A DNA stretch of 64,000 nucleotides from Minisyncoccota bacterium. Its GTDB lineage: Bacteria; Patescibacteriota; Minisyncoccia; Phycocordibacterales; UBA9973. Both the position numbers and the translations under genes were made by a program. Positions 5,209 to 56,881 of the stretch are shown in pieces; positions within the stretch are counted from its first letter, which is position 1, and each line of letters starts with the position of its first letter. The notes beneath the pieces were generated by a model. The model ran no database searches. It saw only the letters and a list, made by a program, of their open reading frames with translations, and was not told the origin of the DNA. The stretch lies in NCBI GenBank assembly GCA_031413715.1, contig JANOFO010000009.1:2718-66717 (forward strand). Reading direction: 5' to 3'.

Positions 5209-5295
5209 AGCTATTAACCCTTTCTTTTTAAGCTCATTTTTGCTATACTGTGAGAGTATTTCACCCGTCTAAAAGGGCGATTTTTCAATAACAAA

Positions 5296-10176: not shown

Positions 10177-11927
10177 TCGGCGGCTATGTGAGCTTTGAAA
10201 TCTTCCAGATTCATTTCTATTTTTGTTCCATCGCGTTTTTCTATTGTAAGCACTCCAGAATCCTTTTCTTTGTCGCCATAGATTATTATATATGGAGCAT
10301 TTTCCTTTTTAGCAGCGTGAATGCGTTTACCGAGACTATCATTATAATCAAAATGTTCTATGCGTATATCATTATCTCTTAGTGCTTCTGCAAGTTTTGT
10401 TGTTCCTTCTATATGTGAGTCTTTGACAGGAATGATTGCGACTTGTATCGGGTTTAACCACGTAGGGAAGACTCCTGCGTAGTGTTCTATGAGCACTGAC
10501 ATGAATCTTTCTATCGAGCCCATGATAGCTGCGTGAATCATGACAATACGTTCTTGTTCACTCTTTTCATTAATACAAAATAGATCAAATCTCTCGGGCA
10601 TATTGGAATCAAGCTGGATCGTAGCGACCTGCCATTCTCTGCCTATAGAATCTTTGGCCATAAAGTCTATCTTTGGTCCGTAGAAAGCCGCCTCTCCAAC
10701 CGCTTCAACTGGCACCTCGCCCTTCTCTTTGACTATAGAGCGGAGCTCTTCTTCAGCATGAATCCATACATCCTCAGTTCCTAAGTATGCTGTCATATTC
10801 TTTGGATCATGGAGAGAAAGCCTAGGGATCAAAGTGAACCCGAATGTGCCGTAAAAAGTTTTCACGATATCATAGATCTTAGAAATTTCTTCCTTTACTT
10901 GAGTAGTGCGGCAGAATACATGAGCGTCATCCTGAGTGATAGATCGTACGCGAGAAAGCCCAGCAAGCTCTCCTGATTGCTCATCACGATAAACTTTTGT
11001 TGTAGAGGCATATCTCTCCGGCATCTCGCGATAGCTCCACTGTCTGCGCGCAAATATCTGAGTATGATGCGGGCAGTTCATCGGCTTCATGGCAAATTCA
11101 TGACCTTCACGCGTATTGATGCGGAAAAGATCATCCTTGAATTTATCCCAGTGACCAGATGTCTCGTATAATTCTTTCTTTGTGATATGCGGAATATCAA
11201 CGCGTTCATATCCGACCCTTTGGCGGAGCTCCCAGACGAAACCATCGAGTAGGTCTCGCATAAGAGTTCCTTTTGGAGTCCACAAGGGAAGGCCTGCTCC
11301 GACAAGATCGGAAAATGTAAAAAGATCAAGCTCTCTACCGAGCTTCTTGTGGTCTCTTTTTCTAGCCTCTTCCTGCTGATTTATATATGTATCGAGATCA
11401 TGCTTATTTTCAAATGCGAGTCCATAAATGCGAGTGAGCATTTTATTCTTCTCATCTCCTCGCCAGTATGCGCCAGCGACTCGTTCAAGCTTGAATGAAT
11501 CAGACTTGATCTCATCTCTAGGATTCTCTACGTGTCCGCCACGACAAAGGTCTGTGAATGATCCTGAAGTATATAAGGTGATTTCTTCTCCTTTTTCCAC
11601 AATTCCATTTATAAGCTCCTCTTTATATTCGTTACCAGCGAACATCTTCCTAGCATCACCCTCGTTCGTCACTTTCTTTTCAAATCCAGACCAGGTTGGT
11701 AGAAGCTCTCGCATTTTTGCTTCTATTTTCTCAAGATCGCTATCGGCAATTTTGCCATTTATGTCTATATCGTAGTAGAAGCCGTTATCTACAGCAGGAC
11801 CGAGAGTGAGTTTGGACCCCGGATAAAGTTCCATGACTGATGCCCCCAAAAGGTGGGCTAGGGAGTGGCGAATATGCGCCAAATGTTCATTGTTTTCCAT
11901 AGTAAGCCCATCATAGCATATTTGCAT
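10158..11927 (-). CDS. thrS: Threonyl-tRNA synthetase (lacks N-terminal TGS domain)
   Basis: 589 aa. HxxxH editing-domain motif (HIRHSLAHLL) and class II aaRS core. An alternative start MENNEH would end the gene at 11900. Confidence 0.9.
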   Translation of the reverse strand: MQICYDGLTMENNEHLAHIRHSLAHLLGASVMELYPGSKLTLGPAVDNGFYYDIDINGKIADSDLEKIEAKMRELLPTWSGFEKKVTNEGDARKMFAGNEYKEELINGIVEKGEEITLYTSGSFTDLCRGGHVENPRDEIKSDSFKLERVAGAYWRGDEKNKMLTRIYGLAFENKHDLDTYINQQEEARKRDHKKLGRELDLFTFSDLVGAGLPLWTPKGTLMRDLLDGFVWELRQRVGYERVDIPHITKKELYETSGHWDKFKDDLFRINTREGHEFAMKPMNCPHHTQIFARRQWSYREMPERYASTTKVYRDEQSGELAGLSRVRSITQDDAHVFCRTTQVKEEISKIYDIVKTFYGTFGFTLIPRLSLHDPKNMTAYLGTEDVWIHAEEELRSIVKEKGEVPVEAVGEAAFYGPKIDFMAKDSIGREWQVATIQLDSNMPERFDLFCINEKSEQERIVMIHAAIMGSIERFMSVLIEHYAGVFPTWLNPIQVAIIPVKDSHIEGTTKLAEALRDNDIRIEHFDYNDSLGKRIHAAKKENAPYIIIYGDKEKDSGVLTIEKRDGTKIEMNLEDFKAHIAAEIKNRS

Positions 11928-11955
11928 TTTAGGAGAAAATAAGTATACTACCTAT

Positions 11956-12174
11956 ATGGTTATACGAATGCGACATACACGTTCCCATACTGGGAACCGC
12001 CGATCACACCACGCTTTAAAGGGTAAGACTTTTGGAGTTTGTTCCAACTGTCAGAAGCCTAAAGAGACTCATGTAATGTGCACACACTGTGGATTTTACC
12101 GGGGACGCAAAGTTATCGATGTGGTTAAGAAAGTAGAAAAGAAGCAGGCTAAGAAAAAAGCTAAGAAGAGTTAG
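11956..12174 (+). CDS. rpmF: 50S ribosomal protein L32
   Basis: 72 aa, MRHTRSHTGNRRSHHAL... with Cys cluster CSNC...CTHCG, K-rich tail. Confidence 0.85.
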   Translation: MVIRMRHTRSHTGNRRSHHALKGKTFGVCSNCQKPKETHVMCTHCGFYRGRKVIDVVKKVEKKQAKKKAKKS

Positions 12175-12248
12175 TTTTTAGGTGATAGGTTCTAGGTTAT
12201 AGTTCTCTACTACAACCTGTAACCTACAACCTATTCGCTCATTTATTT

Positions 12249-13157
12249 ATGGCAAACCGGCACCTTTCACGTTCAATTGTTCTTCAGACACTCTTTGAGT
12301 GGGATTTTGCTGTTGAAAAAGACATTACCCCGAAGGAGATGCTCGACAAGAATATTTTAGAATTCGGCCCTGGGCTTGACGACGCATCTTTCATGTCCGA
12401 GCTCATGCAGGGCGTCGTAAAGAAGCAGGCTATTATCGATGAGATCATAGAAAAAGCTGCGCCTGATTGGCCGATTGACAAAATATCAATCGTTGACCGC
12501 AATATTCTCCGTATGGGGCTCTACGAGCTTCTCTTTGGTGATCGAACCCAAGTTCCACCGAAAGTAGCTATCAATGAAGCTATAGAACTTGCAAAGAGTT
12601 TTGGTGGAGAAAATTCCAGCAAATTTATAAACGGCGTACTAGGAGGAGTATATAAAGAAATCGGTGAACCAGGCAAAGATGATGTTAGCAAAAAGAAGAA
12701 AGCTCTCCAATTCGAGACCGACCCTGCAAAATTTCCAATTGAGAAAAAAGCTGGCGCTGTTATATACGCAGAACATGAAAGCAGTATTTACTTTGCCTTC
12801 GTCCATGACGTTTTTGGTTACTGGACGCTTTCAAAAGGGGGAGTTGAAGAAGGTGAAGATGTCAAAGCGGGAGCAATAAGAGAGATTAAAGAAGAGCTTG
12901 GAATTGAAATAAATATAAAAGAAATCCTTGGTGAGAATGAGTACATTGCTTCTCATCCAGAAAAAGGAAAAATTCGCAAACAAGTTACATTTTTTTTGGC
13001 TGAAACTGTGTATGGTGATCTTGCACTCCACAATAAATCAGGTGGACTCGATGATGCAAAATGGTTCCCGCTTGAAGAAATCGCGAGCCTAAAGATGTAT
13101 GACAATATGATCCCGCTTCTGACGAAAGCGATTGAAATTTTAACAACAAAGAATTAG
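12249..13157 (+). CDS. nusB: NusB antitermination factor fused to a C-terminal Nudix hydrolase domain
   Basis: The N-terminal ~140 aa look NusB-like (RSIVLQTLFEWDF...). The C-terminal domain has a perfect Nudix box GGVEEGEDVKAGAIREIKEELGI (Gx5Ex7REUxEExGU). Confidence 0.8.
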   Translation: MANRHLSRSIVLQTLFEWDFAVEKDITPKEMLDKNILEFGPGLDDASFMSELMQGVVKKQAIIDEIIEKAAPDWPIDKISIVDRNILRMGLYELLFGDRTQVPPKVAINEAIELAKSFGGENSSKFINGVLGGVYKEIGEPGKDDVSKKKKALQFETDPAKFPIEKKAGAVIYAEHESSIYFAFVHDVFGYWTLSKGGVEEGEDVKAGAIREIKEELGIEINIKEILGENEYIASHPEKGKIRKQVTFFLAETVYGDLALHNKSGGLDDAKWFPLEEIASLKMYDNMIPLLTKAIEILTTKN

Positions 13158-28721: not shown

Positions 28722-31700
28722 ATGTATTCATTCGAAAAAACAAACAGAAAATTAAGAAACAAATCAAATACTGCGCTCGCAGTTTTATTGGTTGCTCTGT
28801 CACTTTTTCAGTTTCCATTCATCGGTAGAGCGGCATTTAACAAACAAATAAATTATCAAGGCAAGCTCACCAACGCGTCTGGAGTTGCAGTTGCAAATGG
28901 GGACTACAATATGGAATTCAAGTTAATGACAGTCTCAAGCGGTGGTGACACTACGCAAGGTTCGTGTACTACTAGTTGTGCATGGATGGAAACAAGAACT
29001 GGCGGAAGCAAGGTAACTGTGACGAACGGCCTCTTTAGTGTTCTCCTTGGTGAAGTTACTTCACTCTCTGGAGTTGATTTTAACCAGACCTTATATTTGT
29101 CAGTTCAGATCGGCAATACAGGAAGTCCATCATGGGATGGAGAAATGACTCCACGAAAAAAATTGGGAGCAGTTCCTGCAGCAGTTGAATCAGAGCGAGT
29201 CGGAGGATTTACTCCAGCCCAATCTGCAACAGGCAATCAAGTTCCGGTGCTTACATCTGGAAATTTAATTCTTGGCGGAACAAATCCAACATTCGGCGGA
29301 ACGGGATCAAATACATTGACGCTTCATAATGGCGCAACAGGAGATATTCAATTTTTCGGTTCATCAAATAAGATTACTTCCGGAGGCGCGCTTACAGTTA
29401 CGGGTGTTGTAAATGCTGCAGGATTGACTTCTTCTGGAGCAATTACATTTTCATCACTTGGCACCGGTATTGCTCATCTATCTTCGGGGGGCGTGCTCTC
29501 ATCGTCAGCTATTGATCTGGCAACTGCTGATGTCACGGGAATTTTGACAACAGCAAAAGGTGGAACAGGCATTGGAACACTTGCCTCCAATGCAGTACTC
29601 TATGGTAATGGTACCGGAGCCATTCAAGCCTTGGCTGTAAACTCAGGTGCAACCCTGTGTCTTACTCAAGCAAGTAGTGGTGCACCGGCATGGGGATCAT
29701 GTGGTGCAGGAGGCTCTACCAACTGGGATACCATAGGTGATGCAGGAGGGAATGGCGCCATTGCTATGGGTACCACGGAGCAGACTATGGATTGGGATTT
29801 CACTACGACTGATCACGATGGACTTACCTTTAATTTTGATAACAATGGAGGAACAGCAGGGACCGACCATGGAATTGTTATCAATAACGCACTCTCAACA
29901 AATGCATCTGGAGATCTTGATACAGAAAATTTATTACTGATTCAACAACTCGATACGACTGCTTCTGGCGTAACTGATATTGATAATCTTCTTAAGATAG
30001 ATATCGCAGCAAACTCAGGTGCAACTGATGGCATCGAAATTACAAATTCTGGAGGAAACATCACTGGCAGTGGACTTAATATTGTCGACACAGGAGGCGG
30101 TACCTTTACAACAGGCATCACGCTTGCGGGAACGTTTACTACTGGAATAGATATGGGAGCGAGTACATTAATTAATATTGGAAACGCTGCCACTGATTTT
30201 AATTCGAGCGGTGGACTAACACTTGCGAGTGACCTCGTACTCAATGCCCAAGCAGATGTCCGGTTTGCAGATGCGGATAGTTCTCATTATGTTGGATTCC
30301 AAGCACCATCAAGTATCAGTTCGAGCTTTACATGGACACTGCCATCTACTGACGCAACAGGGTGTCTAAAATCGAATGGTTCAGGAACACTTTCTTTTGA
30401 TGGTGCCTGTGGAGAAACTGACTATGAAACATTTACAGGAAATGGAACTTTTACTAAAAAATCAAATGCCCTTTTAGTTGTTGTCGAAGCATGGGGTCCT
30501 GGTGGTGGCGGTGCAGGAGGAGGTAGTGTTGCTGCTGGTACCGCTACTACAGGTGGTGGAGGTGGTGGAGGAGGCGCATATACAACTCGATCGATTGCTG
30601 CAGGATCTGTCGGAGCGACTGAAACGGTGACCGTTCCTGCTGGCGGTACGGCTGGAACCGGTGGTACAAATGCTGTCGGTACAGATGGTTCTGCTCCGAC
30701 AGCTGATACAAGTTTTGGATCACTCCTCATTGCATATAGAGGAGGAGGTTCTGGAAATGGAAACAACTCTGCTACTGGCGGCGGAGGCGGCGGAGGCGGC
30801 GGATCAGCAGGTGCAGGAACAAGCTCGACGAACCAAACAGGAGGAGCTGGTGGTACATGTGCTGGTGGTGTAACCGTTGGTGCTGGAGCAAACGCTTTTG
30901 GTAGCTGTGGCGGCGGCGGAGGAACAACAACTTCAGGTAATGCGAATGAAGGAGGAGGCGGTGGTGGAGGACTTGCTGCCGGAGGAACTGCAGGACGATC
31001 GGGAGGTACATCCCTCAAGGGAGGCGGCGGAGGCGGTGGAGGAGCAAGTCTTGCAGCAACTCATGCTTCGACTGCCGGAGGTCCAGGAGGTGCAAGTGGT
31101 GCTGCGATGCAGGCAGCAGGAACCGGCGGAGGTGTTGCCGGAGGTGCTGCTGGAACAAATAATGGAACTGCCGGCCAAGATGCAACTTCTTCAACTGGTT
31201 CGCAGATTGGAGGTGGTGGAGGAGGCGGTGGAGGAGGCAGTCAGGCTACAGCTGGATCAAACGGCGGAGCCGGGGCAGTCGGAGGTATTCCTGGAGGAGG
31301 TGGTGGAGGAGGCGGAGCAGGAACGCATAACGGTTCGACAGGAAGTGGCGGAGCCGGAGGAGCCGGCGCACGTGGAGAAATTCGTGTTTGGACCTATCGT
31401 GGCACAGGAGCCGATTTGGCGGAAGTTTACGGAACAAATGACTCAACCCTTGAAGCCGGAGATGTCGTATCTCTTGATCATGACATGCAAGCGGGAGTTA
31501 AAAAAAGCAGCAAAGCATATGATGCTGAGGTAATGGGTATTGTTTCAACAAAACCTGGCATGATTATCGGTAATATTGAAGATGCTGGCGCCATTCCAGT
31601 CCTTCTCGCACTCTCTGGTCGTGTTCCCGTAAAAGTAAATATGGAAAATGGCGCGATTAAAAAAGGCGACCTCCTTACCCCTTCATCCATTCCTGGTGTT

Positions 31701-32990
31701 GCAATGCGAGCGACAAAAGCAGGTAGTATTATCGGACAGTCAATGACAGAGTATATTGACCCTGATGCGCCAGGGTATGTGGTAGTTTTTATTAAGAATA
31801 GTCATACGACGGGAGCAAAACTTTCTGATCTTTTTGCAGGAGAACTTGAGATGATAGGAGGGGAGATAGATAAAGGAGTGGAATTAAATCCATCAGAATT
31901 AATAAAAGGAACCAAAACGCTCCAACAGCGTGCACTTGCTTATTTTAATACTAATAAATTGACTCTCTCAGAGTCTCTCAATCTTTCGGAAGTGACTGCC
32001 GATAGAGTTACTGCAGGACTTGAAATTATAACGCCGACACTCTTTGTAGGAACTGTTTCAACCGATTCTATAACTCCTCTAAATGGAACTTCTCTTGATA
32101 TACTGCTTTCGAATGAAGGTACATTCAACATTAAGAACCAATTGTTGACAGAAGGAGCCGGATCAGCCGAACCTATTGTCAGTATTGATAATTTAGGGAA
32201 CGCGACATTTGCGGGTAATCTAAAAGTAAAAAGTATCAAAGCAGATTCGATCGAAGGTCTCGATTCTTTACTCATGACTAATGCCCATTTAGCCTGGGAT
32301 TCTTTCACAACAAAAACCCTGACTGTATCCGAGAACGCAATCTTTAGTGGAGAATCAAGGTTTGATGGCCTCACATTCTTTAGTATGGCTGCGAACTTTG
32401 ATTCCAGTGTGACATTTAATGCACAATCGGAATTTATTCTTCCACCACTCTTCAATAGTGATACAGCTGGCTTTGCTATAATAAAAAAGGGGAGTCGCAG
32501 AGTTCAAATAATTTTTGAGACGCCTTATATAGTTGAGCCTGTTGTAACCACATCGCTTGTATTTAGCACTGCGGATAAAGTGACTGATTCTGGAGCAGAT
32601 GAGATATTTACTGCAAGCGTTCAGTCTCTTGTCATCGATAGTGATCAAAATGGATTTACTATTTTTTTGAACAAAAACGCGCCACAAGATCTAAGATTCA
32701 CTTGGAATGCGCTTTCTGTCCGCGATCCGAAAATTTTTGAAAGTGTTATCGAAGGTCTCACCATTGAAAATTTACCACTAGACCTACTTCCGCCAGATCC
32801 TTTACCTGATCCAATTCCAGAACCCGACCCAGTCCCTGATCCAACTTCAAAAGAAGAAGATCCAGTTCTTGATCCTATTCCTGTGCTTGATCCAGAGCCT
32901 GTCCAACAAGAAGACCCAGCCCCGATACTTATAGAGATATCTGAGCCGGTAGTGGAAACAAAAGAGGAGCCCATTCCTATAGTTGAGTAA
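28722..32990 (+). CDS. Giant (1422 aa) secreted glycine-rich fibre-like surface protein with Pro/Asp-rich C-terminal tail
   Basis: Signal peptide. N-terminal YQGKLT... beta domains. About 300 aa of GGGGGGG/GAGG low-complexity repeats. C-terminal PDPLPDPIPEPDPVPDP. Confidence 0.75.
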   Translation: MYSFEKTNRKLRNKSNTALAVLLVALSLFQFPFIGRAAFNKQINYQGKLTNASGVAVANGDYNMEFKLMTVSSGGDTTQGSCTTSCAWMETRTGGSKVTVTNGLFSVLLGEVTSLSGVDFNQTLYLSVQIGNTGSPSWDGEMTPRKKLGAVPAAVESERVGGFTPAQSATGNQVPVLTSGNLILGGTNPTFGGTGSNTLTLHNGATGDIQFFGSSNKITSGGALTVTGVVNAAGLTSSGAITFSSLGTGIAHLSSGGVLSSSAIDLATADVTGILTTAKGGTGIGTLASNAVLYGNGTGAIQALAVNSGATLCLTQASSGAPAWGSCGAGGSTNWDTIGDAGGNGAIAMGTTEQTMDWDFTTTDHDGLTFNFDNNGGTAGTDHGIVINNALSTNASGDLDTENLLLIQQLDTTASGVTDIDNLLKIDIAANSGATDGIEITNSGGNITGSGLNIVDTGGGTFTTGITLAGTFTTGIDMGASTLINIGNAATDFNSSGGLTLASDLVLNAQADVRFADADSSHYVGFQAPSSISSSFTWTLPSTDATGCLKSNGSGTLSFDGACGETDYETFTGNGTFTKKSNALLVVVEAWGPGGGGAGGGSVAAGTATTGGGGGGGGAYTTRSIAAGSVGATETVTVPAGGTAGTGGTNAVGTDGSAPTADTSFGSLLIAYRGGGSGNGNNSATGGGGGGGGGSAGAGTSSTNQTGGAGGTCAGGVTVGAGANAFGSCGGGGGTTTSGNANEGGGGGGGLAAGGTAGRSGGTSLKGGGGGGGGASLAATHASTAGGPGGASGAAMQAAGTGGGVAGGAAGTNNGTAGQDATSSTGSQIGGGGGGGGGGSQATAGSNGGAGAVGGIPGGGGGGGGAGTHNGSTGSGGAGGAGARGEIRVWTYRGTGADLAEVYGTNDSTLEAGDVVSLDHDMQAGVKKSSKAYDAEVMGIVSTKPGMIIGNIEDAGAIPVLLALSGRVPVKVNMENGAIKKGDLLTPSSIPGVAMRATKAGSIIGQSMTEYIDPDAPGYVVVFIKNSHTTGAKLSDLFAGELEMIGGEIDKGVELNPSELIKGTKTLQQRALAYFNTNKLTLSESLNLSEVTADRVTAGLEIITPTLFVGTVSTDSITPLNGTSLDILLSNEGTFNIKNQLLTEGAGSAEPIVSIDNLGNATFAGNLKVKSIKADSIEGLDSLLMTNAHLAWDSFTTKTLTVSENAIFSGESRFDGLTFFSMAANFDSSVTFNAQSEFILPPLFNSDTAGFAIIKKGSRRVQIIFETPYIVEPVVTTSLVFSTADKVTDSGADEIFTASVQSLVIDSDQNGFTIFLNKNAPQDLRFTWNALSVRDPKIFESVIEGLTIENLPLDLLPPDPLPDPIPEPDPVPDPTSKEEDPVLDPIPVLDPEPVQQEDPAPILIEISEPVVETKEEPIPIVE

Positions 32991-49038: not shown

Positions 49039-49082
49039 TATTGAACTCTTCTTTCAAAGTTTCTATTAGCTCATCAATTTGT

Positions 49083-49215
49083 GCGGGTAGATACCCGCGC
49101 TTCTAGCGGAAATGCCCGAGGCTCTTACTCATGCTTGCCCCACATCCTCCCGTTCGCGCGCACTTCTTCCGCTAATTTTAGGACGGAAAGAGAAAACGAG
49201 CGGAAACCCCCTTAA
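49083..49215. ncRNA. GC-rich island in a 650-bp AT-rich intergenic region; candidate structured RNA of unknown class
   Basis: Hairpin GCGGGTAgatACCCGC. Long-range pairing TAGCGGAA (49102) with TTCCGCTA (49163). Roughly 60% GC against an AT-rich surround. No match by eye to SRP, RNase P or tmRNA consensus. Confidence 0.3.
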
Positions 49216-49446
49216 TTCACAGCAATATAACAATTTTTATTGTCTGTGGTTTATAACTTTTTGTAAAAATTCAGAAACAATAGTGGCTTATTTCGGTTGC
49301 TTTTGATGTGTATTGTTTTTTAATTACAACAATAAAAATTACTACCATTTTTATTGTTTTCTGGTACACTTGTAATATAATATTATAAATTAATTTAACA
49401 TAAAAACTATGGAACATACACCGATATTAAATAATGCTTCATTGAA

Positions 49447-49629
49447 ATGATTGGAGCAATTGAAAAAGGAGCTATAAAATATGATGATACATGGGTAGAT
49501 CTCGTCGCTGTAAAAAATGATGAACTCGCACAACTTGAAGAAGGGTGGGGAGGTCTCCTAATATTATTGGCAGTCCACAGGGAAAGAGCTCAGAAATTCC
49601 TCATGAAAAAATTGTTGCGATTATTGTAA
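49447..49629 (+). CDS. Small hypothetical ORF (60 aa)
   Basis: Only an ORF in the long leader upstream of 49696. No support beyond an open frame. Confidence 0.2.
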   Translation: MIGAIEKGAIKYDDTWVDLVAVKNDELAQLEEGWGGLLILLAVHRERAQKFLMKKLLRLL

Positions 49630-49695
49630 AACACTTAAAGAAGAAAATTTAATCTTTTAGTCACAGAAAAGACATTGTGACTAATAACTCTTAAT

Positions 49696-51801
49696 ATGAA
49701 AGAAAAAAATATTATTGAAAATAATACAAGAGAAGAGGTATATAATACGCTTAGACAGAAATTAAATATTTCACGAGAAGCGTTCAGTGAATCCGAAACA
49801 GTTTTAGGTTTGGTAACAGAGGAATTAAAACAGAGTTACGGAAAAAATTTGCAAGAAAGAGAGCAACTTATACTCATGCGCAAAATTGCATTGTTCCATC
49901 GGGGGAATGGTATAGCAGATGCAGTAATTATCGCCAAAACGATTATAGATACACCTGATCTATTACTCTCCAATGGATTCCCTAATCTAAAAACAGCCCT
50001 TGATATTGCCAAGAATTCTCAAAAAAAATCTGCAAATCAAGTATGGCAAGGTATATCAAACGAGACCAGAGATATGCCCACAATAGCTGAAGTTTCACTA
50101 GGAAACGGTAGCCATTATCTTGGTCGTATTTTTACAAAAAATCAAATCGCAGAGAATGGAGCTACGCTCAACACATGCATTCAAGGGAAAAGTCTTGAAA
50201 GATACTTCGATAAATCTGTGAGTGGTACTATAGAAATATTTTCGGTGTTTACTTCAAACTCTCATACTCCCATTACGACCATCGTATATGATTCTGGCCT
50301 TGGAGAAATTATGCAAGTAAAGAAACAAGACGATAGACTCCTTGATGGAGCGGAGCCATTTTTTGATGTAGTCATGGAATCTATTCACCACCTTGTATCT
50401 GAACCGAGCTATCGTACTGATGGTTCACCGTATTCGCGAACTGTTAAATATATCAGAGATATGGAAGATCTATCACCTGAACACCCGATAGCAATAGATA
50501 CATCTGGGGAAATTCGTCCGCTTGACGAAATGATATACACATCACCAGAAGCAATTTTGGGCGGTTCAAAAATAAAAGTTCATTCCGATATTAATATTCA
50601 AAAAATGATTGAGCTTACTGAAAGTGCACCTGTTGCCATTGATATGACCGAGGCGACAAACGAACAGCGTAAATCGTTACGAAAGGTACTCGGAACACTT
50701 GTTGATGACAGATCGTCAGTGAGCGGGTACGATTCACTGGAATCAGTTGGAGGCCAAATACTTGCTAATAACGCGAGCGCTGCTTCTTTCAAGAATCTAT
50801 CACATGTTCGACGGGGTTTGTACGCAAAAAAGGCAAAAGAAGTTTCAATACCTCTCTTACAAACGGTTTTAGGGAGGATTGATGTGCCTATGGCAGAAAC
50901 TCTCTACGCGCCTGAATTAACATTTGCGGGCGGAAATATAGATGCTTCTTCAGTGCAAGAGTTGATATTTTCAAAATTACAGAAAGTCGGGTGGGATATT
51001 CGTGCACACAATGCATCGCGAGTTGAAATGCCACTTGTCGAAGAAATTGGTGGTGAGTTTCAGGTTGAGCAAGCGTTAGAAATATTTGCACCATTGTTGC
51101 GCGTATGTCGTGGAATTAAAACTACGCCTCAAAGCAAAATAACAGTTCCGGATGCTATTTTGGTCTTTAGGGACAGCGGAAATGATGCTCAAGAAAAATT
51201 ATCTAAACTTCAGGAACAAGATCAAATATTACAAGAAAAAAATGCTGAGATTAAAACAAAGATTGAAGTGGTATTGCATGAATGGCAACAACAACTCCCT
51301 GAAGTAAAAATAATACTGGATGGGTCGCTAGTTTCAGGATTACATATCATTGACCAAGATACGAAAGTTATTGATGCTGATGTCCGAATATTGTCTGATA
51401 TGCCCATTACAGATGAGCTTCAGAAAAAGATTACATCAATCACTGGTCTTATATATCGCAAGACACATGACATAGATATTTGGCCTGATGGAGAAAAATT
51501 GGGTAAAGGTATTATGCTTGCTGAGGCCATGAAAATATTGGGGATTAATCTTCCTGTTGAAGTATGCGCTATGCTTCGTAGTAGTGCACAGTATATTAAT
51601 TGGGGACAATATTACAGGCAGGTACTTACAGAAAATGAAATTTTTAGTTATACTAAACAAAAACGATTACTGCAATCAGGAAGTGATGAAAAAGAATACA
51701 AGAAATTCAAAAAAAAGTATTTGGACTTGGTGCGAAAACGATGCGCTGAGCGTGGTTTAGTTGAACTGCCTAATTATGTATTACCTGAAGTCCCTAATTA
51801 G
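49696..51801 (+). CDS. Large hypothetical protein (701 aa), first gene of the P-loop/HD/Nudix cluster
   Basis: No TM segment, no motif recognised. Consistent coding frame. Confidence 0.6.
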   Translation: MKEKNIIENNTREEVYNTLRQKLNISREAFSESETVLGLVTEELKQSYGKNLQEREQLILMRKIALFHRGNGIADAVIIAKTIIDTPDLLLSNGFPNLKTALDIAKNSQKKSANQVWQGISNETRDMPTIAEVSLGNGSHYLGRIFTKNQIAENGATLNTCIQGKSLERYFDKSVSGTIEIFSVFTSNSHTPITTIVYDSGLGEIMQVKKQDDRLLDGAEPFFDVVMESIHHLVSEPSYRTDGSPYSRTVKYIRDMEDLSPEHPIAIDTSGEIRPLDEMIYTSPEAILGGSKIKVHSDINIQKMIELTESAPVAIDMTEATNEQRKSLRKVLGTLVDDRSSVSGYDSLESVGGQILANNASAASFKNLSHVRRGLYAKKAKEVSIPLLQTVLGRIDVPMAETLYAPELTFAGGNIDASSVQELIFSKLQKVGWDIRAHNASRVEMPLVEEIGGEFQVEQALEIFAPLLRVCRGIKTTPQSKITVPDAILVFRDSGNDAQEKLSKLQEQDQILQEKNAEIKTKIEVVLHEWQQQLPEVKIILDGSLVSGLHIIDQDTKVIDADVRILSDMPITDELQKKITSITGLIYRKTHDIDIWPDGEKLGKGIMLAEAMKILGINLPVEVCAMLRSSAQYINWGQYYRQVLTENEIFSYTKQKRLLQSGSDEKEYKKFKKKYLDLVRKRCAERGLVELPNYVLPEVPN

Positions 51802-51841
51802 ATTTTTATGCAAAAGTATGTAATTAACTATATATAATATT

Positions 51842-54136
51842 ATGAAACCAGAAAATTCGCCTAATATTGGCATAAAAAAAGCTATAGAATATGTTAAAAA
51901 ACAAGAGGATATGCTTACAAAAAGCAAAGAAACCCCTATTGAAATTGAGTTTGAAGGAGGGTTATCTGAAAGTCAAAAAGCAAAAAAACATATTGTATGT
52001 TTCGTAGGCATGCCGGGTGCGGGGAAAACAACGCAGATAGAAGCGCTCCAAGGTTACACAGGTGCTCCAGTATTTCATCTTGCAAAAGTCGCTAAAACTC
52101 TTAATCTTGAGAAAGATGGTGTACAAGTACCAGTAGCTGATCTTATGGAGGAAAAGAGAAAAATGGGTGAACTTATCGAAGGGCTCGATGATCTCTTTTT
52201 AGCTGAAGTTGCAAACTCAAAACAAGGCATTGCAATTCTTGATGGATTTCCAAGATCACCCGACCAAGCCGCACATCTGCTGGCGTATGCGGCGAAAAAT
52301 CGATGGCACATTGATGTTGTCTATCTTGAATCAGATGTGCATCATGCATGGCGTCATCAGGTACGGAGAGCGAAAAACTCGAATGAGAATGTTGATTGGG
52401 AAAGATTCGACGGCAAAATAGATAGGGCAATCCGCAAAGATATTCCTGCTGTACAAGCTCTGAAGTCGGCTGGTGTTCCAATTACCGAACTCGATGCGAC
52501 ACGTGACAAGAAGGATCTCAAGGGAGAGATACGAGAATCCCTTGGATTTTCATACGAGAATCTTCCTTGGGAAAAGAATATTCTTGAGTACGGAAAGATT
52601 GCTTCACAGCGCTCTGGCGTTCAACTTTGGTTTGGCGCAGGGATGTTGTATCGTCCTTTTTGGAACGGAAAGTTCGGCCCTTTTCAAGAATCAACTGACA
52701 AAGACATCTTTGTCATGCGGAAAGAAGATATTGAATCGGTACAAAAGGTTCTTGAAGAGATTGCACCTGATATTAGGTGGTCAGTACATAGCCGCGCCGA
52801 AGAGAGTGAGGCGCATTTCGGACATACACCTACAACACTAGAAGAAGGTATTACACACGCACCCATGAATTTTAGAAAAGGTGGAGTTCGTATGGGACCA
52901 GATGGAAAGATGGAGGTGCTATTGTCACCTATAGTTGAGGCCGATTTACGAAATGGCATATTGCGACTTGATGATTCAGTACTTGCTTCCATTGATCAGG
53001 CGAAGCGAGAAGAGTATATCAACGATGCTATGCGCCGTATGCACAAGACCTTGCGTGAATATCCTGGTCTGCAATTTGCTGATACCACGCTCGCAGAGAA
53101 GTATGCACAAGTGACCGGTTCTGCTCACGCACCAAAAGAGCTTATTACTCGATGGGAAGAAATACAGGACGAGATTTGGGAAACGGAGACTGGGGGGCGT
53201 GCTCGATGGAATCCTGATTCAATTAACATTGAACAAGAAAACCTTATGAACGAGCTTGTTTCTTTTTATCGTACAGTAGACAAGAGTCCCTCTGCTCCTC
53301 CTCGACCAAAGAAATCTATCATGCCTGTATTGATTGAAGATTTGCGTGTACGAAATATTACTGACAAGGTTCAGCCTCCCGAGGGATACGAATCATGGCT
53401 CCAGTATGTTATCCGCGAAGCAACTGACGCGGAGTTTTGCGAATGGCTTTTGAATCAGACTCGAAGCAGACAGCCGATTGGGGGGCGTGATCAAGATCTA
53501 TCGGGAATACTGACCTTTTCGCGAGAAAAAGAGCAAGAAATTGGAGTACAGACGCAGGAGCAGAAACGGTCGCATCTCGGATTTACACTCGACCAACACT
53601 TACTCGAATCGGCTTTGCAATTACATACAGATGAACTCGAAGAATTACTCAAGTCTTTTCCAGTAATTCCATTGCAGTTTAGAGATGTACGTGCTTCCTT
53701 ACGCATGGGTATGCTCTATCACGACATCGGAAAATTGTACAATGTGCATACGCCTGGCTCCCATGAAGGAGTCGGAGCAAAAATGTGGAATCGCTTAAAA
53801 CCGTCATGGATATCAGACGAACAAGCAAGCCTTGCAGAATGGATTATTCGAACTCACGACGTATTCGGAAGGTTGGCGCGTGGCATTACAGAAAAGGAAA
53901 ATAAATCGCTTGAAGATAATAGTTTCAACCCAATGGCAACCCCATCTTATCAGGGAGCACTTGATCCCCATGAAGCCTTGGGTGAACTAGAGCGACTTGG
54001 TTACCCGAGGGATCTAGTGATAGCTCTGCATAAAATAGCGTGGACTGCGGATGTAAGTTCAGTCTCGGCACTCAGATGGATTTTACCGGCAGCAGACATC
54101 CTAGAGAAAATCGTTATACAAGAAACAAAAAAATAG
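51842..54136 (+). CDS. Multidomain protein: N-terminal adenylate-kinase-like P-loop NMP-kinase domain plus C-terminal HD-superfamily phosphohydrolase domain
   Basis: Walker A FVGMPGAGKTT and the AK-like ILDGFPRSPDQA motif. C-terminal HD motifs LHTDE...MLYHDIGK...HTPGSHEGV...IRTHDVFG...HKIAWTAD. Confidence 0.65.
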   Translation: MKPENSPNIGIKKAIEYVKKQEDMLTKSKETPIEIEFEGGLSESQKAKKHIVCFVGMPGAGKTTQIEALQGYTGAPVFHLAKVAKTLNLEKDGVQVPVADLMEEKRKMGELIEGLDDLFLAEVANSKQGIAILDGFPRSPDQAAHLLAYAAKNRWHIDVVYLESDVHHAWRHQVRRAKNSNENVDWERFDGKIDRAIRKDIPAVQALKSAGVPITELDATRDKKDLKGEIRESLGFSYENLPWEKNILEYGKIASQRSGVQLWFGAGMLYRPFWNGKFGPFQESTDKDIFVMRKEDIESVQKVLEEIAPDIRWSVHSRAEESEAHFGHTPTTLEEGITHAPMNFRKGGVRMGPDGKMEVLLSPIVEADLRNGILRLDDSVLASIDQAKREEYINDAMRRMHKTLREYPGLQFADTTLAEKYAQVTGSAHAPKELITRWEEIQDEIWETETGGRARWNPDSINIEQENLMNELVSFYRTVDKSPSAPPRPKKSIMPVLIEDLRVRNITDKVQPPEGYESWLQYVIREATDAEFCEWLLNQTRSRQPIGGRDQDLSGILTFSREKEQEIGVQTQEQKRSHLGFTLDQHLLESALQLHTDELEELLKSFPVIPLQFRDVRASLRMGMLYHDIGKLYNVHTPGSHEGVGAKMWNRLKPSWISDEQASLAEWIIRTHDVFGRLARGITEKENKSLEDNSFNPMATPSYQGALDPHEALGELERLGYPRDLVIALHKIAWTADVSSVSALRWILPAADILEKIVIQETKK

Positions 54137-54203
54137 TTTAAAAATCATAAATATATAGAGAGTTGATTATTATTAATAAATTTATCACAATATAAAAGAA
54201 ATT

Positions 54204-55508
54204 ATGAAAACTCCTGACCAACCAAACACTAATACCCGAGAACTACAACCACTAACTGGTCGTGAAGGTATTGATATGTTAAAAGCATCATCTGCAAAAG
54301 TGTCTGGCATTAGTTTGGTTGATTTTCTGAAAACTTCTGAAGGCAAAGAGGCCATGAAGCAAAAGAAAATCGTACTCGCTGGCCCCCCTCGTTCCGGTAA
54401 ATCTTGCCTACGGCAAGGATTAAAGGATGCCATAAAGCAAATAAGCAATGGTGACGTGTATCCTTATGTTTTGACAGCATGTCCTGATGGCGAGGGTGCA
54501 TGGTTCCAAGAATCAATGAACAATGATCCTATCCTGGCAGCCAAACTAAAAGCAGACTACAAATCAAAATTTACTCCAGAGTTCGTGGAAAGAATTACAA
54601 AATCTGTAGAAAATTTATCACTTCCGCTTAGTTTTGTTGATATAGGAGGTATGACTACTCCAGAGAATGAACAAATTTGCAAACACACAAATGGCGCTAT
54701 ACTACTTTGTGGCGAGACAGCAACTAAGAACGACGCCCCAGCTGAATGGAAAATTTTTTTTACAAAACTCGGTATTCCAATTATTGCTGAAGTTTATTCA
54801 GACTATAAAGGTATAGAAGATATAGTTGATGGAACTGGAGGAGATGGTGTGTTTAGAGGTTCTATACACCATCTTGAACGAGGTGAACCTCTTTTAAACA
54901 GAGAAACCATTAGAGCGTTAGGTAGTTTCATAATTAATCTTGGGAAAGAAATAGATGATACATTGAACATAACACATACAGTAAAACAGCTACAGGGTGC
55001 AGGAATAGATATAACAAATTGGGGTAAGGGAGGAACAAAAACTGTAGAACAATTACATAAGGAAATTCAAGACGAAGAGACCATTTTAGTTCAGGGTGAA
55101 CGCGGAGAGCTTTTAAGGAAAGTCATTGTAGGTGGTGGCGATATTTATTACACCTCGCCTGAAGGAAAAAAATATCGCTTGATCGAAGAAAAACAGGTTT
55201 TTGCCAATGGTAGTGAAAGAAGAAGAAACTTGGGACACGCTGTATCAGAAAAACTAAAGCACGGCGAAGATATAAAAGAAGCAATGATCCGTGGTATTAG
55301 TGAAGAGCTCGGCATCTCGGGAGATATATCTTTAGAAGAAGTAAAAACCCATGAAGAAATTCTATCCTCTCCTAGTTACCCTGGCTTAAGATCGCAATAC
55401 ATACTACCGGAGTTTAAGATACTCCTAACTCAAGAACAGTTTAAGCCAGAGGGCTATATTGAAACACAATCAGACAAGAGCACTTACTTTATTTGGAAAG
55501 AAATTTAA
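54204..55508 (+). CDS. Multidomain protein: P-loop NTPase (GPPRSGKS) plus C-terminal Nudix-like domain
   Basis: Walker A LAGPPRSGKS. C-terminal E-x7-RGISEELGI fits a Nudix box with one deviation (G in place of E at the REx position). Confidence 0.5.
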   Translation: MKTPDQPNTNTRELQPLTGREGIDMLKASSAKVSGISLVDFLKTSEGKEAMKQKKIVLAGPPRSGKSCLRQGLKDAIKQISNGDVYPYVLTACPDGEGAWFQESMNNDPILAAKLKADYKSKFTPEFVERITKSVENLSLPLSFVDIGGMTTPENEQICKHTNGAILLCGETATKNDAPAEWKIFFTKLGIPIIAEVYSDYKGIEDIVDGTGGDGVFRGSIHHLERGEPLLNRETIRALGSFIINLGKEIDDTLNITHTVKQLQGAGIDITNWGKGGTKTVEQLHKEIQDEETILVQGERGELLRKVIVGGGDIYYTSPEGKKYRLIEEKQVFANGSERRRNLGHAVSEKLKHGEDIKEAMIRGISEELGISGDISLEEVKTHEEILSSPSYPGLRSQYILPEFKILLTQEQFKPEGYIETQSDKSTYFIWKEI

Positions 55509-55513
55509 TCAAC

Positions 55514-56287
55514 TTATTCTGGATACTGATTTATAGGATATTTATTCCAGAGAGTGTCAAACAGCATATCAAAAGTTTTTCTAATATTTTGATCTTCTAT
55601 GATGGTAGTAATCATGCAATCTGCGAAAGAACTAAGCGCAACTTTATTTCCGTAAACGATAACCTGCGCCGGATTATTCAATTCCGTACGTGGCACTCGT
55701 TTTCTCTCAGTTAAATATTTTTCATCTTCTGCTTTGGAAATTGTACTGGGAGTGTTCTTGATTGGCACAATAAGTTTTATCTTAATACCAATTTCTCTTA
55801 ATGCTTCTCGATTTTTTGACCAAATTGGAATTACTTCTTCAGCATTATTATCAAGTGGAGAGCGGATCAGTTTAATATCAGACTTCGTGTGTAGTATGTC
55901 TTTATTTAGAATCTTCAATCCCTCTAGCCCTTCATAGAAACGCACCGTTGGTTTTCCGCATGCGAGATTAAACTGTGCTCCAAGTGTGCTAACCGCTTCA
56001 TGCAGAGCTTGGTCGGCAAGTTTTAAATCTTCTTCTTTTCTTTTTACTAGAGTGTGAAGTTTTGAAGGATGGAGTGCGGTGAAAGTACTAACTGATCCGG
56101 GGACAGTGCTTTCAATTATTAAACCTAATTCAACGAGTTGTTTTAGTATTTTATATACCAAACTGCGATTAACTCTACTTTCTAGAGCTATTTTTCTTGC
56201 CGGTAAAGCACCCGAAGAAACTAAAGATAAATATACTTTTGCCTGTTCAAGATTTAAACCAACTTGTTCTAGTAATTTTGTGCTCAT
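55514..56287 (-). CDS. TrmB-family transcriptional regulator
   Basis: N-terminal winged HTH LEQAKVYLSLVSSGALPARKIALESRVNRSLVYKILKQLVELGLI, then a C-terminal TrmB-like domain. Confidence 0.7.
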   Translation of the reverse strand: MSTKLLEQVGLNLEQAKVYLSLVSSGALPARKIALESRVNRSLVYKILKQLVELGLIIESTVPGSVSTFTALHPSKLHTLVKRKEEDLKLADQALHEAVSTLGAQFNLACGKPTVRFYEGLEGLKILNKDILHTKSDIKLIRSPLDNNAEEVIPIWSKNREALREIGIKIKLIVPIKNTPSTISKAEDEKYLTERKRVPRTELNNPAQVIVYGNKVALSSFADCMITTIIEDQNIRKTFDMLFDTLWNKYPINQYPE

Positions 56288-56398
56288 AAATTGTTTTTTC
56301 TACATAACAATAATAGCCTTATATTATCATAGTGGTATATAAGCTGTCAAATTTGCGTAAATATATCCTTATTTATATAGGTATTTATAAAATAATGC

Positions 56399-56427
56399 TT
56401 GACATTTAGAACTCAATATGCTATACT
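56399..56427 (+). promoter_or_regulatory. Near-consensus sigma70 promoter TTGACA-17-TATACT
   Basis: TTGACA at 56399-56404, TATACT at 56422-56427, about 55 nt upstream of a GGGAGGTG Shine-Dalgarno. Confidence 0.55.
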
Positions 56428-56480: not shown

Positions 56481-56579
56481 ATGAACGCAATAAATTTTGT
56501 TTTCATATCCACCTTCCGATTCACGGATAGTGAAAAACAATCCGCCGGTGATTGGTCCGGCAAAAATTATGTTAAATGA
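56481..56579 (+). CDS. Small peptide gene (32 aa, MNAINFVFISTFRFTDSEKQSAGDWSGKNYVK) translationally coupled (ATGA overlap) to the downstream gene
   Basis: Strong SD GGGAGGTG 6 nt upstream of ATG. The stop overlaps the start of 56576..56881. Confidence 0.4.
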   Translation: MNAINFVFISTFRFTDSEKQSAGDWSGKNYVK

Positions 56580-56881
56580 AATATTTTAATATAAATCTTG
56601 AGGGCGATACCCTTAAGATAGGGTTTGGTCAACCTGCCCAAAATGATCAAATTGTTTCCGAGGTTATCGAGACCTTAGAAGCAATGAAAACCTCCGGGGA
56701 GCTTGCTGGAGGAAAACTGGTAAAAATTAACGGGCCGGCAAGCCTGCCAGTAGCGATGGCAATAGGCCATGCCGTCGCCCATCTCTATGAGGTGGTGGCC
56801 TGCTTCGACCCGAAGCTGGCCAAGTATGTGGTTGCCGTTTCGCACGGCGTAGACCACAGGCCAGGCGACCTGATTGATTAA
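56576..56881 (+). CDS. Hypothetical 101-aa protein; the 3' half of the gene is strongly GC-rich (~58% GC), suggesting foreign origin
   Basis: Consistent frame. No motif recognised. Composition shifts from AT-rich to GC-rich midway through the gene. Confidence 0.55.
   Translation: MKYFNINLEGDTLKIGFGQPAQNDQIVSEVIETLEAMKTSGELAGGKLVKINGPASLPVAMAIGHAVAHLYEVVACFDPKLAKYVVAVSHGVDHRPGDLID

Follow-up and report, generated by a model that had tools for sequence, protein, structure and literature searches.

Csx3-AAA and AAA-Csx3 are accessory families of type III CRISPR systems, corresponding to clusters 35 and 67 of Shah et al. 2019 (PMC6546367) and represented in PADLOC by models PDLC01045 and PDLC01059. 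Csx3-AAA has been predicted to be regulated by cyclic oligoadenylate (cOA) (PMC6546367), and its function is still unknown (PMC12409355). Early work described Csx3 as a deadenylating exoribonuclease (cited in PMC7371418 and PMC7159879); the characterized protein is an Mn-dependent oligoadenylate phosphodiesterase, which degrades cyclic tetra-adenylate (cA4) (PMC7371418). Here, relatives of both parts of Csx3-AAA are described in a 64,000-nucleotide (nt) stretch of a Minisyncoccota genome (assembly GCA_031413715.1, contig JANOFO010000009.1, positions 2,718 to 66,717 of the forward strand), in a locus that also encodes two further multidomain proteins. This whole stretch is referred to as the window, and coordinates follow its numbering.

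The locus contains three genes on the + strand, labelled A (49696-51801, 701 amino acids, aa), B (51842-54136, 764 aa) and C (54204-55508, 434 aa). A and B are separated by 40 nt and B and C by 67 nt, and no terminator-like site was found on the + strand between the genes. A preliminary description, made from the DNA sequence alone, had reported them as three co-oriented open reading frames (ORFs), and all three were found where it placed them. Downstream are a TrmB-family regulator gene (55514-56287, - strand) and csx3 (56576-56881, + strand).

The locus is a mosaic of two linked modules, with A and B in the left half and C, TrmB and csx3 in the right half. The first module, comprising the P-loop-Nudix gene C, the TrmB-like regulator and csx3, is a conserved cassette of the Candidate Phyla Radiation (CPR; Patescibacteria). 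The second, A and B, is a rarer pair, found partly in mobile-element-like neighbourhoods, and occupies the former position of a cassette gene designated F8. In the comparisons below, related loci carry the prefix L and homologous proteins the prefix P.

Gene C and the Csx3-associated cassette

Residues 32-244 of the gene C product match the PADLOC Csx3-AAA models PDLC01045 (E 3e-46) and PDLC01515 (E 9e-46). They represent the 'AAA' part of that family, a Csx3-associated P-loop NTPase domain (54291..54938, + strand, residues ~30-245) with the motifs GPPRSGKS, CPDGEG, DIGG and HHLERGE. The 101-aa product of csx3 corresponds to the Csx3 part of the same PADLOC model, matching its N-terminal part (E 1e-24). 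The P-loop domain has 250 homologues, with 60-80% identity across CPR lineages. In PDB, its profile found weak similarity to the Walker A and DxGG motifs of G-alpha proteins, and nothing else; no search placed the domain in a particular class of P-loop proteins.

Several features separate this arrangement from Csx3-AAA. Here, the two domains are encoded by separate genes 1 kb apart, with the TrmB regulator between them, and the P-loop domain is fused to a Nudix-like domain. No CRISPR-Cas system lies close by, here or at seven related CPR loci: the search of the 64-kb window for a CRISPR array was negative, the window ORFs scanned outside the locus gave no Cas or defence match, and none of eight CPR P-loop loci (L008-L010, L030-L033 and the window) has a Pfam-recognizable cas gene within 6-7 kb. 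In the literature searched, a TrmB-like protein, F8 and a GrpB-like nucleotidyltransferase (NTase) are not described as regular partners of Csx3-AAA.

The csx3 product resembles Crn3/Csx3 of Archaeoglobus fulgidus (AF1864, AfCsx3; PMC7371418) in being small and stand-alone and in its GD(L/V)ID C-terminus. It passes the Pfam Cas_csx3 cut-off (24.4 against 21 bits) but falls below the equivalog cut-off of NCBIfam TIGR02579 (23.4 against 55.4 bits), and a phmmer comparison with AfCsx3 gave an E value of 0.5. Equivalents of the catalytic-type residues H57, H60/61, D69 and H80 are retained, with one-residue register shifts (residue roles for H57, H60, D69, R71 and H80 are from PMC7371418). In contrast, R71, described as absolutely conserved (PMC7371418), is replaced by Lys in the window copy, as in most of the aligned P-loop-associated Csx3 proteins, although a few keep Arg. 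A further difference from Crn3/Csx3 is that no type III system is in view.

The regulator gene is convergent with gene C, the stop codons being 5 nt apart, and divergent from csx3. The preliminary description had rightly placed a TrmB-family gene after gene C but called it divergent, and did not list csx3. The N-terminal winged helix of the product scores 44.9 bits against the Pfam TrmB cut-off of 25.6, and the protein matches TrmBL2 structures in PDB (E 1e-4); the C-terminal ~150 aa have no family assignment. In the region between TrmB and csx3 there are back-to-back, near-consensus sigma-70-like promoters (56321..56427, both strands): TTGACA-16-GATAAT on the - strand (56350..56323) and TTGACA-17-TATACT, with an upstream TG, on the + strand (56399..56427). 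Both sites score 11/12 and are the two best in 8.6 kb, although the total number of sites is not above that in shuffled sequences. At the corresponding place, L009 and L010 have long inverted repeats (18 nt, perfect; 27 nt, 81%), which are candidate operators. No long inverted repeat was found in this region of the window.

The C-terminal domain of gene C (54987..55508, + strand, residues ~262-434) contains the box E-x5-E-x7-R-G-I-S-E-E-L-G-I and is a probable homologue of Nudix domains, of non-canonical type. Three members of the family give weak Pfam NUDIX matches (E 0.057, 0.017 and 0.04; 13.9-15.5 bits against a cut-off of 21.1), and the C-terminal profile retrieved five PDB proteins, each of them a Nudix protein with the alignment on the box (best E 0.0024). 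The equivalents of E44, R52, E56, E57 and G59 (MutT numbering) and their spacing are invariant in three full-length Nudix-like members, and the positions are kept in P0125. Compared with GX5EX7REUXEEXGU, the first Gly and the Glu after the Arg are missing. A stand-alone copy of the domain adjoins the P-loop gene in L032. P0125, a metagenomic protein of 308 aa, has a TIR_2 domain (E 4e-27) fused to a C-type Nudix-like domain with 53% identity. This fusion is a hint that the Nudix-like family may act on nucleotides derived from NAD or ADP-ribose.

Fusions and neighbourhoods

Among 120 listed homologues of gene C, the P-loop domain is found alone in 52 and with Csx3, in either order, in 38. A further 22 combine it with an NTase of the type at the C-terminus of A, one with this NTase and two Csx3 domains, three with the Nudix-like domain and three with F8; the remaining protein is P0125, TIR plus Nudix-like with no P-loop. 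P0072 and P0145 combine the P-loop, NTase and Csx3 domains. In P0009 (1230 aa), B is fused to the N-terminal and repeat regions of A, and P0154 adds a HicA toxin domain to the partner domains of the P-loop, NTase and Nudix families. The fusions of B with the N-terminal half of A, and of the A-type NTase with the P-loop and Csx3, indicate that these genes are functionally linked, as the earlier account had supposed for A, B and C.

The order of P-loop gene, TrmB on the opposite strand and Csx3 is conserved in L009, L010, L030/L031 and L032/L033, in each of which F8 or an F8 fusion precedes the P-loop gene. The usual cassette is F8, the P-loop gene, TrmB and Csx3, in which the P-loop stands by itself or has a GrpB-like NTase or a Nudix-like domain fused to it or next to it. 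Orthologues of the window TrmB are found in the same position in L009, L010 and L032/L033 (up to E 1e-164 against a family profile seeded on the window protein), with a more distant TrmB in L030/L031. The closest relative of the window is L032/L033, where the P-loop and Nudix-like domains are encoded by adjacent, separate genes.

F8 is a conserved partner protein of ~312-328 aa, whose gene elsewhere normally comes immediately before the Csx3-associated P-loop gene or is fused with it. It has invariant residues D65, H68, D99, D101 and D133 and a C-terminal GWGGSxTIGGSPQ motif; no Pfam match and no useful PDB sequence match were found.

Co-occurrence of A, B and C in other genomes had been put forward as a check on the cluster, and on this point the result was negative: the triplet is present in no other locus examined. 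The P-loop-TrmB-Csx3 order and, separately, B with the N-terminal half of A recur instead. In L001, B and a PcfJ-like/LRR (leucine-rich repeat) protein are divergent neighbours, and in L001 and L004 this pair lies beside serine recombinases, Fic, ThsB-type TIR and methyltransferases. In L006, an HD-CE protein adjoins the fusion protein. Elsewhere, B is found with TrmB only (L003/L012, where a TrmB orthologue lies one gene away and no P-loop gene was found), with other unknown partners (L004 and L005) or alone (myxobacteria). A phage origin of B and the P-loop domain was considered and rejected, since the viral contig collection contained no relatives of either and PHROGs gave only trivial P-loop matches.

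The simplest history suggested by these comparisons would begin with an ancestral cassette of F8, P-loop, Nudix, TrmB and Csx3 genes. A and B would later have entered the F8 position, F8 would have decayed, and the P-loop and Nudix genes would have fused.

Some of the related loci have additional features. In L010, the P-loop gene and TrmB have an HD_4 (RelA/SpoT-type HD) protein between them, and the locus also encodes a weak radical-SAM-like protein and an ADK, the gene coordinates of this set being 7788-8378 (-), 4293-5726 (+) and 11761-12303 (+). In L005, an extra ADK-like gene immediately follows B and a small GNAT-like gene precedes it (6081-6650, 3280-3786). These separate genes of L010 and L005 mirror domains of B or the putative fold of A. 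L003 has a 271-aa unknown protein (12341-13156, -) and a 125-aa protein of the MJ1673 family (PF27247; 14311-14688, +), which adjoin the B homologue and TrmB orthologue where csx3 lies in other loci; the MJ1673-family protein gave no alignment with Csx3. Downstream of the Csx3 and P-loop-Nudix pair in L008 (4434-10352) are at least 14 small co-oriented ORFs with no Pfam matches, which may be a prophage or mobile region, unlike the housekeeping setting of other cassettes. Pfam also gave nothing for the recurrent unknown neighbours (708/668, 343, 474, 271, 498, 728 and 354 aa).

Gene B, a kinase-NTase-HD protein

The gene B product has three catalytic-type domains, a kinase, a central NTase and an HD domain, all encoded on the + strand. 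The preliminary description had assigned the kinase and HD domains, and the Nudix-like domain of C, and these assignments hold; the central NTase, of the CCA-enzyme type, was not part of it. All of the motifs quoted (GMPGAGKTT, ILDGFPRS, LYHDIGK, HTPGSHEG, IRTHDVFG and HKIAWTAD in B; GPPRSGKS and E-x7-RGISEELGI in C) are present in the translations. The wide conservation of the HD ligands and the fact that PDB matches on the Nudix box were to Nudix proteins only argue that the motifs are more than chance.

The N-terminal domain (51974..52546, residues ~45-235) belongs to the adenylate/UMP-CMP-kinase family and has an adenylate kinase (AK) fold with a short LID. It contains a Walker A motif of the form GxPGxGK[ST] (GMPGAGKT) and a nucleoside monophosphate (NMP) site, DGFPRS. 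The sequence ILDGFPRS is retained in CPR homologues of B that have the kinase domain, while myxobacterial homologues have EKFPR. Scores are below the equivalog and family cut-offs (29.7 against 168 bits for TIGR01351, and 21.8 against 26.8 for Pfam ADK); the domain is a divergent paralogue rather than adk itself. An imperfect 20-nt repeat at the 5' end of B (51875-51931; 2.7 copies with 76% matches, Tandem Repeats Finder) encodes a poorly conserved N-terminal helix ahead of this domain.

The central region (52604..53551) comprises a head similar to class-II tRNA NTases (residues ~255-385, AGxLYRPFWNG...STDKD) and a helical body extending to residue ~570. The head has the pol-beta fold with the hG[GS] and DxD motifs, and it is structurally closest to class-II tRNA NTases. 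In bacterial CCA enzymes, an NTase and an HD phosphoesterase occur together, and motifs B and D read RRD and EDxxR, respectively. Neither motif is recognizable in gene B; the closest look-alikes, FRxGGVR and E-A-D-L-R, differ in spacing and are not kept in the myxobacterial members. There is no match to Pfam PolyA_pol (PF01743), and the match to PF06042 (21.7 bits) is under the cut-off of 25.

The C-terminal HD phosphohydrolase domain (53564..54121, residues ~575-760) was checked for the metal ligands, as had been proposed, and the set is complete: H586, H627-D628, H642, H670-D671 and D737. These residues are kept in nearly all CPR, myxobacterial and other homologues, while P0017 and P0016, divergent or truncated relatives of B, lack several of them. 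The best sequence matches are the HD regions of GlnD (NCBIfam, E 4e-5), and the score against Pfam HD is 14.6 bits, under the cut-off of 22.

Gene B thus resembles both class-II CCA-adding enzymes and GlnD in having a pol-beta NTase head, a helical region and then an HD domain. It differs from both in its N-terminal NMP-kinase domain, from CCA enzymes in the motifs described above and in a head belonging to the uncharacterized PF06042/COG3575 group (group XX, PMC2794190) rather than to PolyA_pol, and from GlnD in having no ACT domains. A parallel had earlier been drawn with polynucleotide end-healing enzymes such as HD-Pnk, with the domains in reverse order. The likeness to HD-Pnk/Pnkp stands in so far as a P-loop phosphotransferase and a metal-dependent phosphoesterase are present in one polypeptide, in that reversed order. 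However, an NTase lies between them, the kinase is of NMP type rather than of the polynucleotide-kinase clade, and there is no ligase or Hen1 partner, as is usual for such enzymes; B falls outside the HD-Pnk/Pnkp group.

The B family is rare. A word-indexed search of 5.8 billion protein clusters found 17 clusters, and a few extra homologues came from metagenomes. A further 11 loci (L013-L023), from Myxococcaceae, Archangium and one unclassified proteobacterial metagenome-assembled genome, encode full-length kinase-NTase-HD homologues with ~26-31% identity over the full length and with the catalytic motifs kept. Neither A, C, Csx3 nor TrmB was found as a neighbour in these loci, and no conserved partner was found, clusters there being dominated by spurious overlapping ORFs in high-GC DNA. 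The homologue in L016 has a possible N-terminal extension of ~400 aa, seen only as an ORF call in high-GC DNA. The conservation of the active-site residues from CPR to myxobacteria suggests that B is probably a real three-activity enzyme, acting on nucleotides or RNA 3' ends.

In P0017, a 963-aa relative (L007, 6352-9243), the AK domain is replaced by a region of ~490 aa with the motifs GGTN, NDTS and GGSGTN, and the neighbouring genes are of sugar metabolism. The motifs gave the impression of a hexokinase/ROK-type kinase, which was discarded because Pfam and PDB sequence searches gave no confirmation.

Gene A

The word-indexed search returned only A itself; homologues were found by an exhaustive search. 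The N-terminal part (49696..50475, + strand, residues 1-260) is a PcfJ-like domain with a helical part followed by an alpha/beta core. Four of five tested homologues with the domain are above the cut-off for PF14284 and the fifth is just below, whereas the window protein itself gave no match at E values up to 0.1 and has N-T-C in place of the family consensus N-H-C. The domain is modelled with confidence, and the core of the model is possibly GNAT-like.

The middle region contains about eight LRR-like repeats of 20 residues (50593..51135, + strand, residues ~300-480). Identity is 28 at a lag of 20 compared with 4-11 at lags 21-25, and homologues match the stretch several times over, with a family consensus of LPKLQSVGGDLxAxSAxSLS. 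The region is poorly modelled (predicted local distance difference test, pLDDT, below 50), and the LRR-like assignment is one of sequence periodicity only.

The C-terminal domain (51181..51774, + strand, residues 496-693) is a GrpB-like NTase with a pol-beta fold and the GS (G543-S544) and DxD (D560-x-D562) motifs. Near-invariant E609 is Ala in the window copy, with a Glu one position on, and the window domain departs from the family at 7 of 18 near-invariant positions, among them that of the likely third carboxylate. It was compared with GrpB (UPF0157) proteins of the pol-beta NTase fold, including the C-terminal domain of mycobacterial CoaE. Unlike these, it forms one protein with the PcfJ-like/LRR part in the window and with the Csx3-associated P-loop elsewhere; there is no detectable sequence similarity, the profile finding nothing useful among PDB sequences.

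The leader of gene A

The 657-nt leader of gene A, described previously as long and containing a GC-rich island, does contain the island and, in addition, a frameshifted F8 relic (49456..49646, + strand). The relic covers the last ~64 codons of F8 in two frames, with profile matches at 49456-49554 (E 7e-9) and 49548-49646 (E 1.6e-11). In tblastn and blastn searches it matches the F8 gene of L010, with 80% nucleotide identity over 124 nt. The leader also holds nucleotide-level remnants of the F8 gene and of the region upstream of it.

GC content is 49-53% at 49050-49199 compared with 18-23% at 49250-49449. The island (49103-49159) has a counterpart of ~83% identity ahead of the L032/L033 cassette, where the core of the sequence is an arm of an inverted repeat, CCCTAGCGGAAATGCCCGAGGCGGA, that is perfect over 25 nt and has 261 nt between its arms (L032, 4184-4208 and 4470-4494; L033, 534-549 and 821-836). 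The window retains only one arm. From this similarity, the island may be the remnant of one inverted-repeat arm of a miniature inverted-repeat transposable element (MITE) or an invertible segment. A riboswitch or other structured leader RNA was rejected, as there was no Rfam match at E values up to 1, no folding signal on either strand (z -0.83 and +0.85) and no covariation with the L032 counterpart.

Genomic setting

The window is a core chromosomal region with a GC content of ~40%. Homologues of its genes come from sources named Gracilibacteria, Pacebacteria, Kaiserbacteria, Nomurabacteria and Saccharibacteria, in line with a CPR host. One flank of the locus contains gyrB, thrS, smc, rnr, rpoC, dnaG, rpoD, a DsbA-like gene and a glycosyltransferase family 2 (GT2) gene, and a 1070-aa ORF just upstream of rpoC that we take to be rpoB. 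The other flank contains tRNA-Thr, tsf-like and rpsB-like ORFs (both by inspection of the translations), a class-II aminoacyl-tRNA synthetase gene, mreBC and tgt.

Elsewhere in the window, an ORF of 1422 aa (28722-32990, + strand) has no Pfam or PADLOC match. Within this stretch, especially at 30001-32000, GC content is 50% compared with the window average of ~40%. Short GGC-rich tandem repeats in the ORF, three copies of GGCGGCGGA and 2.5 copies of GGAGGCGGTGGA, suggest Gly-rich low-complexity segments.

Possible function of the locus

The families already known in the locus are Csx3-AAA, Csx3/Crn3, TrmB, the AK fold, HD, Nudix-like and the GrpB-like fold. The literature searched contains no description of the assembly, of a CRISPR-free CPR cassette with TrmB, F8, NTase and Nudix partners, or of the kinase-NTase-HD architecture. 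The earlier statement that this is not a described system is thus correct for the whole assembly, though not for the P-loop of C and Csx3, which belong to the published Csx3-AAA family (PMC6546367).

Apart from the LRR-like repeats, the PcfJ-like domain and TrmB, the recognizable domains point to nucleotides or RNA ends. Three are phosphohydrolases (HD, Nudix-like and Csx3), two are pol-beta NTases, and the others are an NMP kinase and a P-loop NTPase. This supports the original view of a cluster of nucleotide- or nucleic-acid-directed enzymes. Our preferred reading, held tentatively and at somewhat less than even confidence, is that the locus encodes a unit for nucleotide-based signalling and processing in stress or conflict. 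The two NTases, at the C-terminus of A and the centre of B, would synthesize or lengthen a nucleotide or oligonucleotide, perhaps at the 3' end of an RNA, and the NMP-kinase domain of B would phosphorylate the nucleotide substrate or product. The HD domain of B, the Nudix-like domain and Csx3 would remove nucleotide species and so reset the system, with the P-loop NTPase as a switch or effector partner of Csx3. Through the TrmB-like protein, transcription from the two divergent promoters would follow the state of the system, and the PcfJ-like/LRR part of A may be an input or targeting module. This reading is favoured because the established substrate of Csx3 is cA4 and because the partners of the P-loop, NTase and Nudix families are varied and include toxin-type HicA and TIR. 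In addition, the conserved core includes a dedicated regulator, and the neighbourhoods in which B occurs with the PcfJ-like/LRR protein are mobile-element-like.

Several points weigh against a signalling or conflict role. The A-B-C triplet is confined to the window among the loci examined, and the myxobacterial homologues of B stand alone, so B need not depend on the cassette. The loss of near-invariant residues, including E609, suggests that the NTase of the window A may be inactive. At the locus, no PADLOC system model other than Csx3 was matched, and the viral contig collection held no relatives of B or the P-loop domain. Housekeeping genes surround the cassette, rpoC, dnaG, rpoD, tRNA-Thr, tsf, rpsB and mreBC in the window and others such as uvrABC and recJ elsewhere, and such a setting, with 60-80% identity of the P-loop and TrmB proteins, suits a core function better than fast-evolving defence. 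The proposal takes as its basis the observed domain identities, conserved catalytic residues, fusions and neighbourhoods; from these we infer the chemistry, the ligand and the order of the steps, and the enzyme substrates and the signal molecule are putative.

A more specific version of the signalling reading, which we consider rather doubtful, is a CRISPR-independent nucleotide second-messenger pathway of CPR bacteria built around Csx3. The GrpB-like NTase and, in this genome, the kinase-NTase-HD enzyme would make an oligoadenylate-like or new signal. The LRR/PcfJ-like protein would sense an invader or a host cue, the P-loop NTPase would act as effector or switch, the pathway would be turned off by Csx3, Nudix and HD, and the TrmB-like protein would provide the transcriptional output.

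The main rival to the signalling reading, on balance unlikely but not by a wide measure, is that the locus is a toolkit for the healing, repair or remodelling of RNA 3' ends, probably of tRNA, an amended form of the end-healing idea in the preliminary description. The CCA-like head of B would recognize a damaged tRNA acceptor end and its NTase would re-add nucleotides, and B does share the NTase and HD phosphoesterase pairing of bacterial CCA enzymes; CCA-enzyme and TUTase (terminal uridylyltransferase)-like structural neighbours fit this, but the absence of recognizable motifs B and D and of a PolyA_pol match does not. The HD domain would remove 2',3'-cyclic, 3'-phosphate or pyrophosphate groups. 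The AK-like domain would supply or recycle nucleotides or phosphorylate an end, although it is an NMP kinase with a DGFPR NMP site and not a polynucleotide kinase. The GrpB/TUTase-like NTase of A, the Nudix-like domain (as a 5'-end or cap pyrophosphohydrolase) and Csx3 would also act on RNA ends; the deadenylating exoribonuclease activity reported for Csx3 (cited in PMC7371418 and PMC7159879) would suit such a role, but the ring-nuclease work reassigned the activity to cA4 (PMC7371418). A precedent is RlaP (PF10127; PMC12776372), a stand-alone pol-beta NTase that adds NMPs to damaged RNA 3' ends in repair and was tied to them through gene neighbourhood, the same style of inference as here. RlaP is, however, of a different NTase family and is linked to RNA ligases, and neither an RNA ligase (RtcB, Rnl or Pnkp ligase) nor Hen1 is present in the locus or the related loci examined. 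The housekeeping neighbourhood and strong conservation suit cellular maintenance, while repair enzymes do not typically have TIR or HicA as fusion partners, or a transcription factor of their own.

It is improbable that the locus encodes ordinary type III CRISPR accessories working in trans with a Cas10 system elsewhere in the genome, with Csx3 as a ring nuclease, the P-loop-Nudix protein as a cOA-controlled accessory, and A and B as unrelated neighbours. Csx3-AAA is catalogued as a type III accessory family (PADLOC matches; PMC6546367), ring nucleases occur in some effector-less loci and may act in trans (PMC12409355), and the window is 64 kb of a contig of at least 170 kb. Against this, the window has no CRISPR array and no Cas or defence match among the ORFs scanned, all eight CPR P-loop loci lack a recognizable cas gene nearby, and the fusions of the A-type NTase with the P-loop, and of the N-terminal half of A with B, speak for A and B being part of the cassette.

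Equally improbable is a role in nucleotide salvage or housekeeping metabolism, with no part in signalling or repair, in which CPR bacteria relying on salvaged nucleotides would keep unusual fusions of nucleotide-pool enzymes under a metabolic regulator of TrmB type. In its favour, the B kinase is a true AK-family member, the control of sugar and central metabolism is the classical role of TrmB-family regulators, the neighbourhood is of housekeeping type and extra ADK-like genes are present in L005 and L010. Against it, the AK-family scores are far below equivalog cut-offs, B belongs to a very rare family, the pol-beta NTases, two in number, are not enzymes of salvage, and Csx3, the LRR-like repeats, the PcfJ-like domain and the TIR and HicA partners have no place in salvage.

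The locus provides a testable handle on the function of Csx3-AAA with no CRISPR nearby, within a reproducible CRISPR-free CPR neighbourhood of F8, a GrpB-like NTase or Nudix domain, a TrmB-like regulator and Csx3. The fusion partners (NTase, Nudix-like and HicA) are concrete handles for experiments. If RNA-end repair is the correct explanation, B would be a new tRNA-end repair enzyme. If the locus is a signalling unit, Csx3-type ligand processing would take place outside CRISPR immunity, and a second-messenger pathway would give the long-unexplained 'AAA' partner a role and uncouple Csx3 from Cas10. Either outcome would be relevant to the fields of nucleotide signalling or RNA repair.

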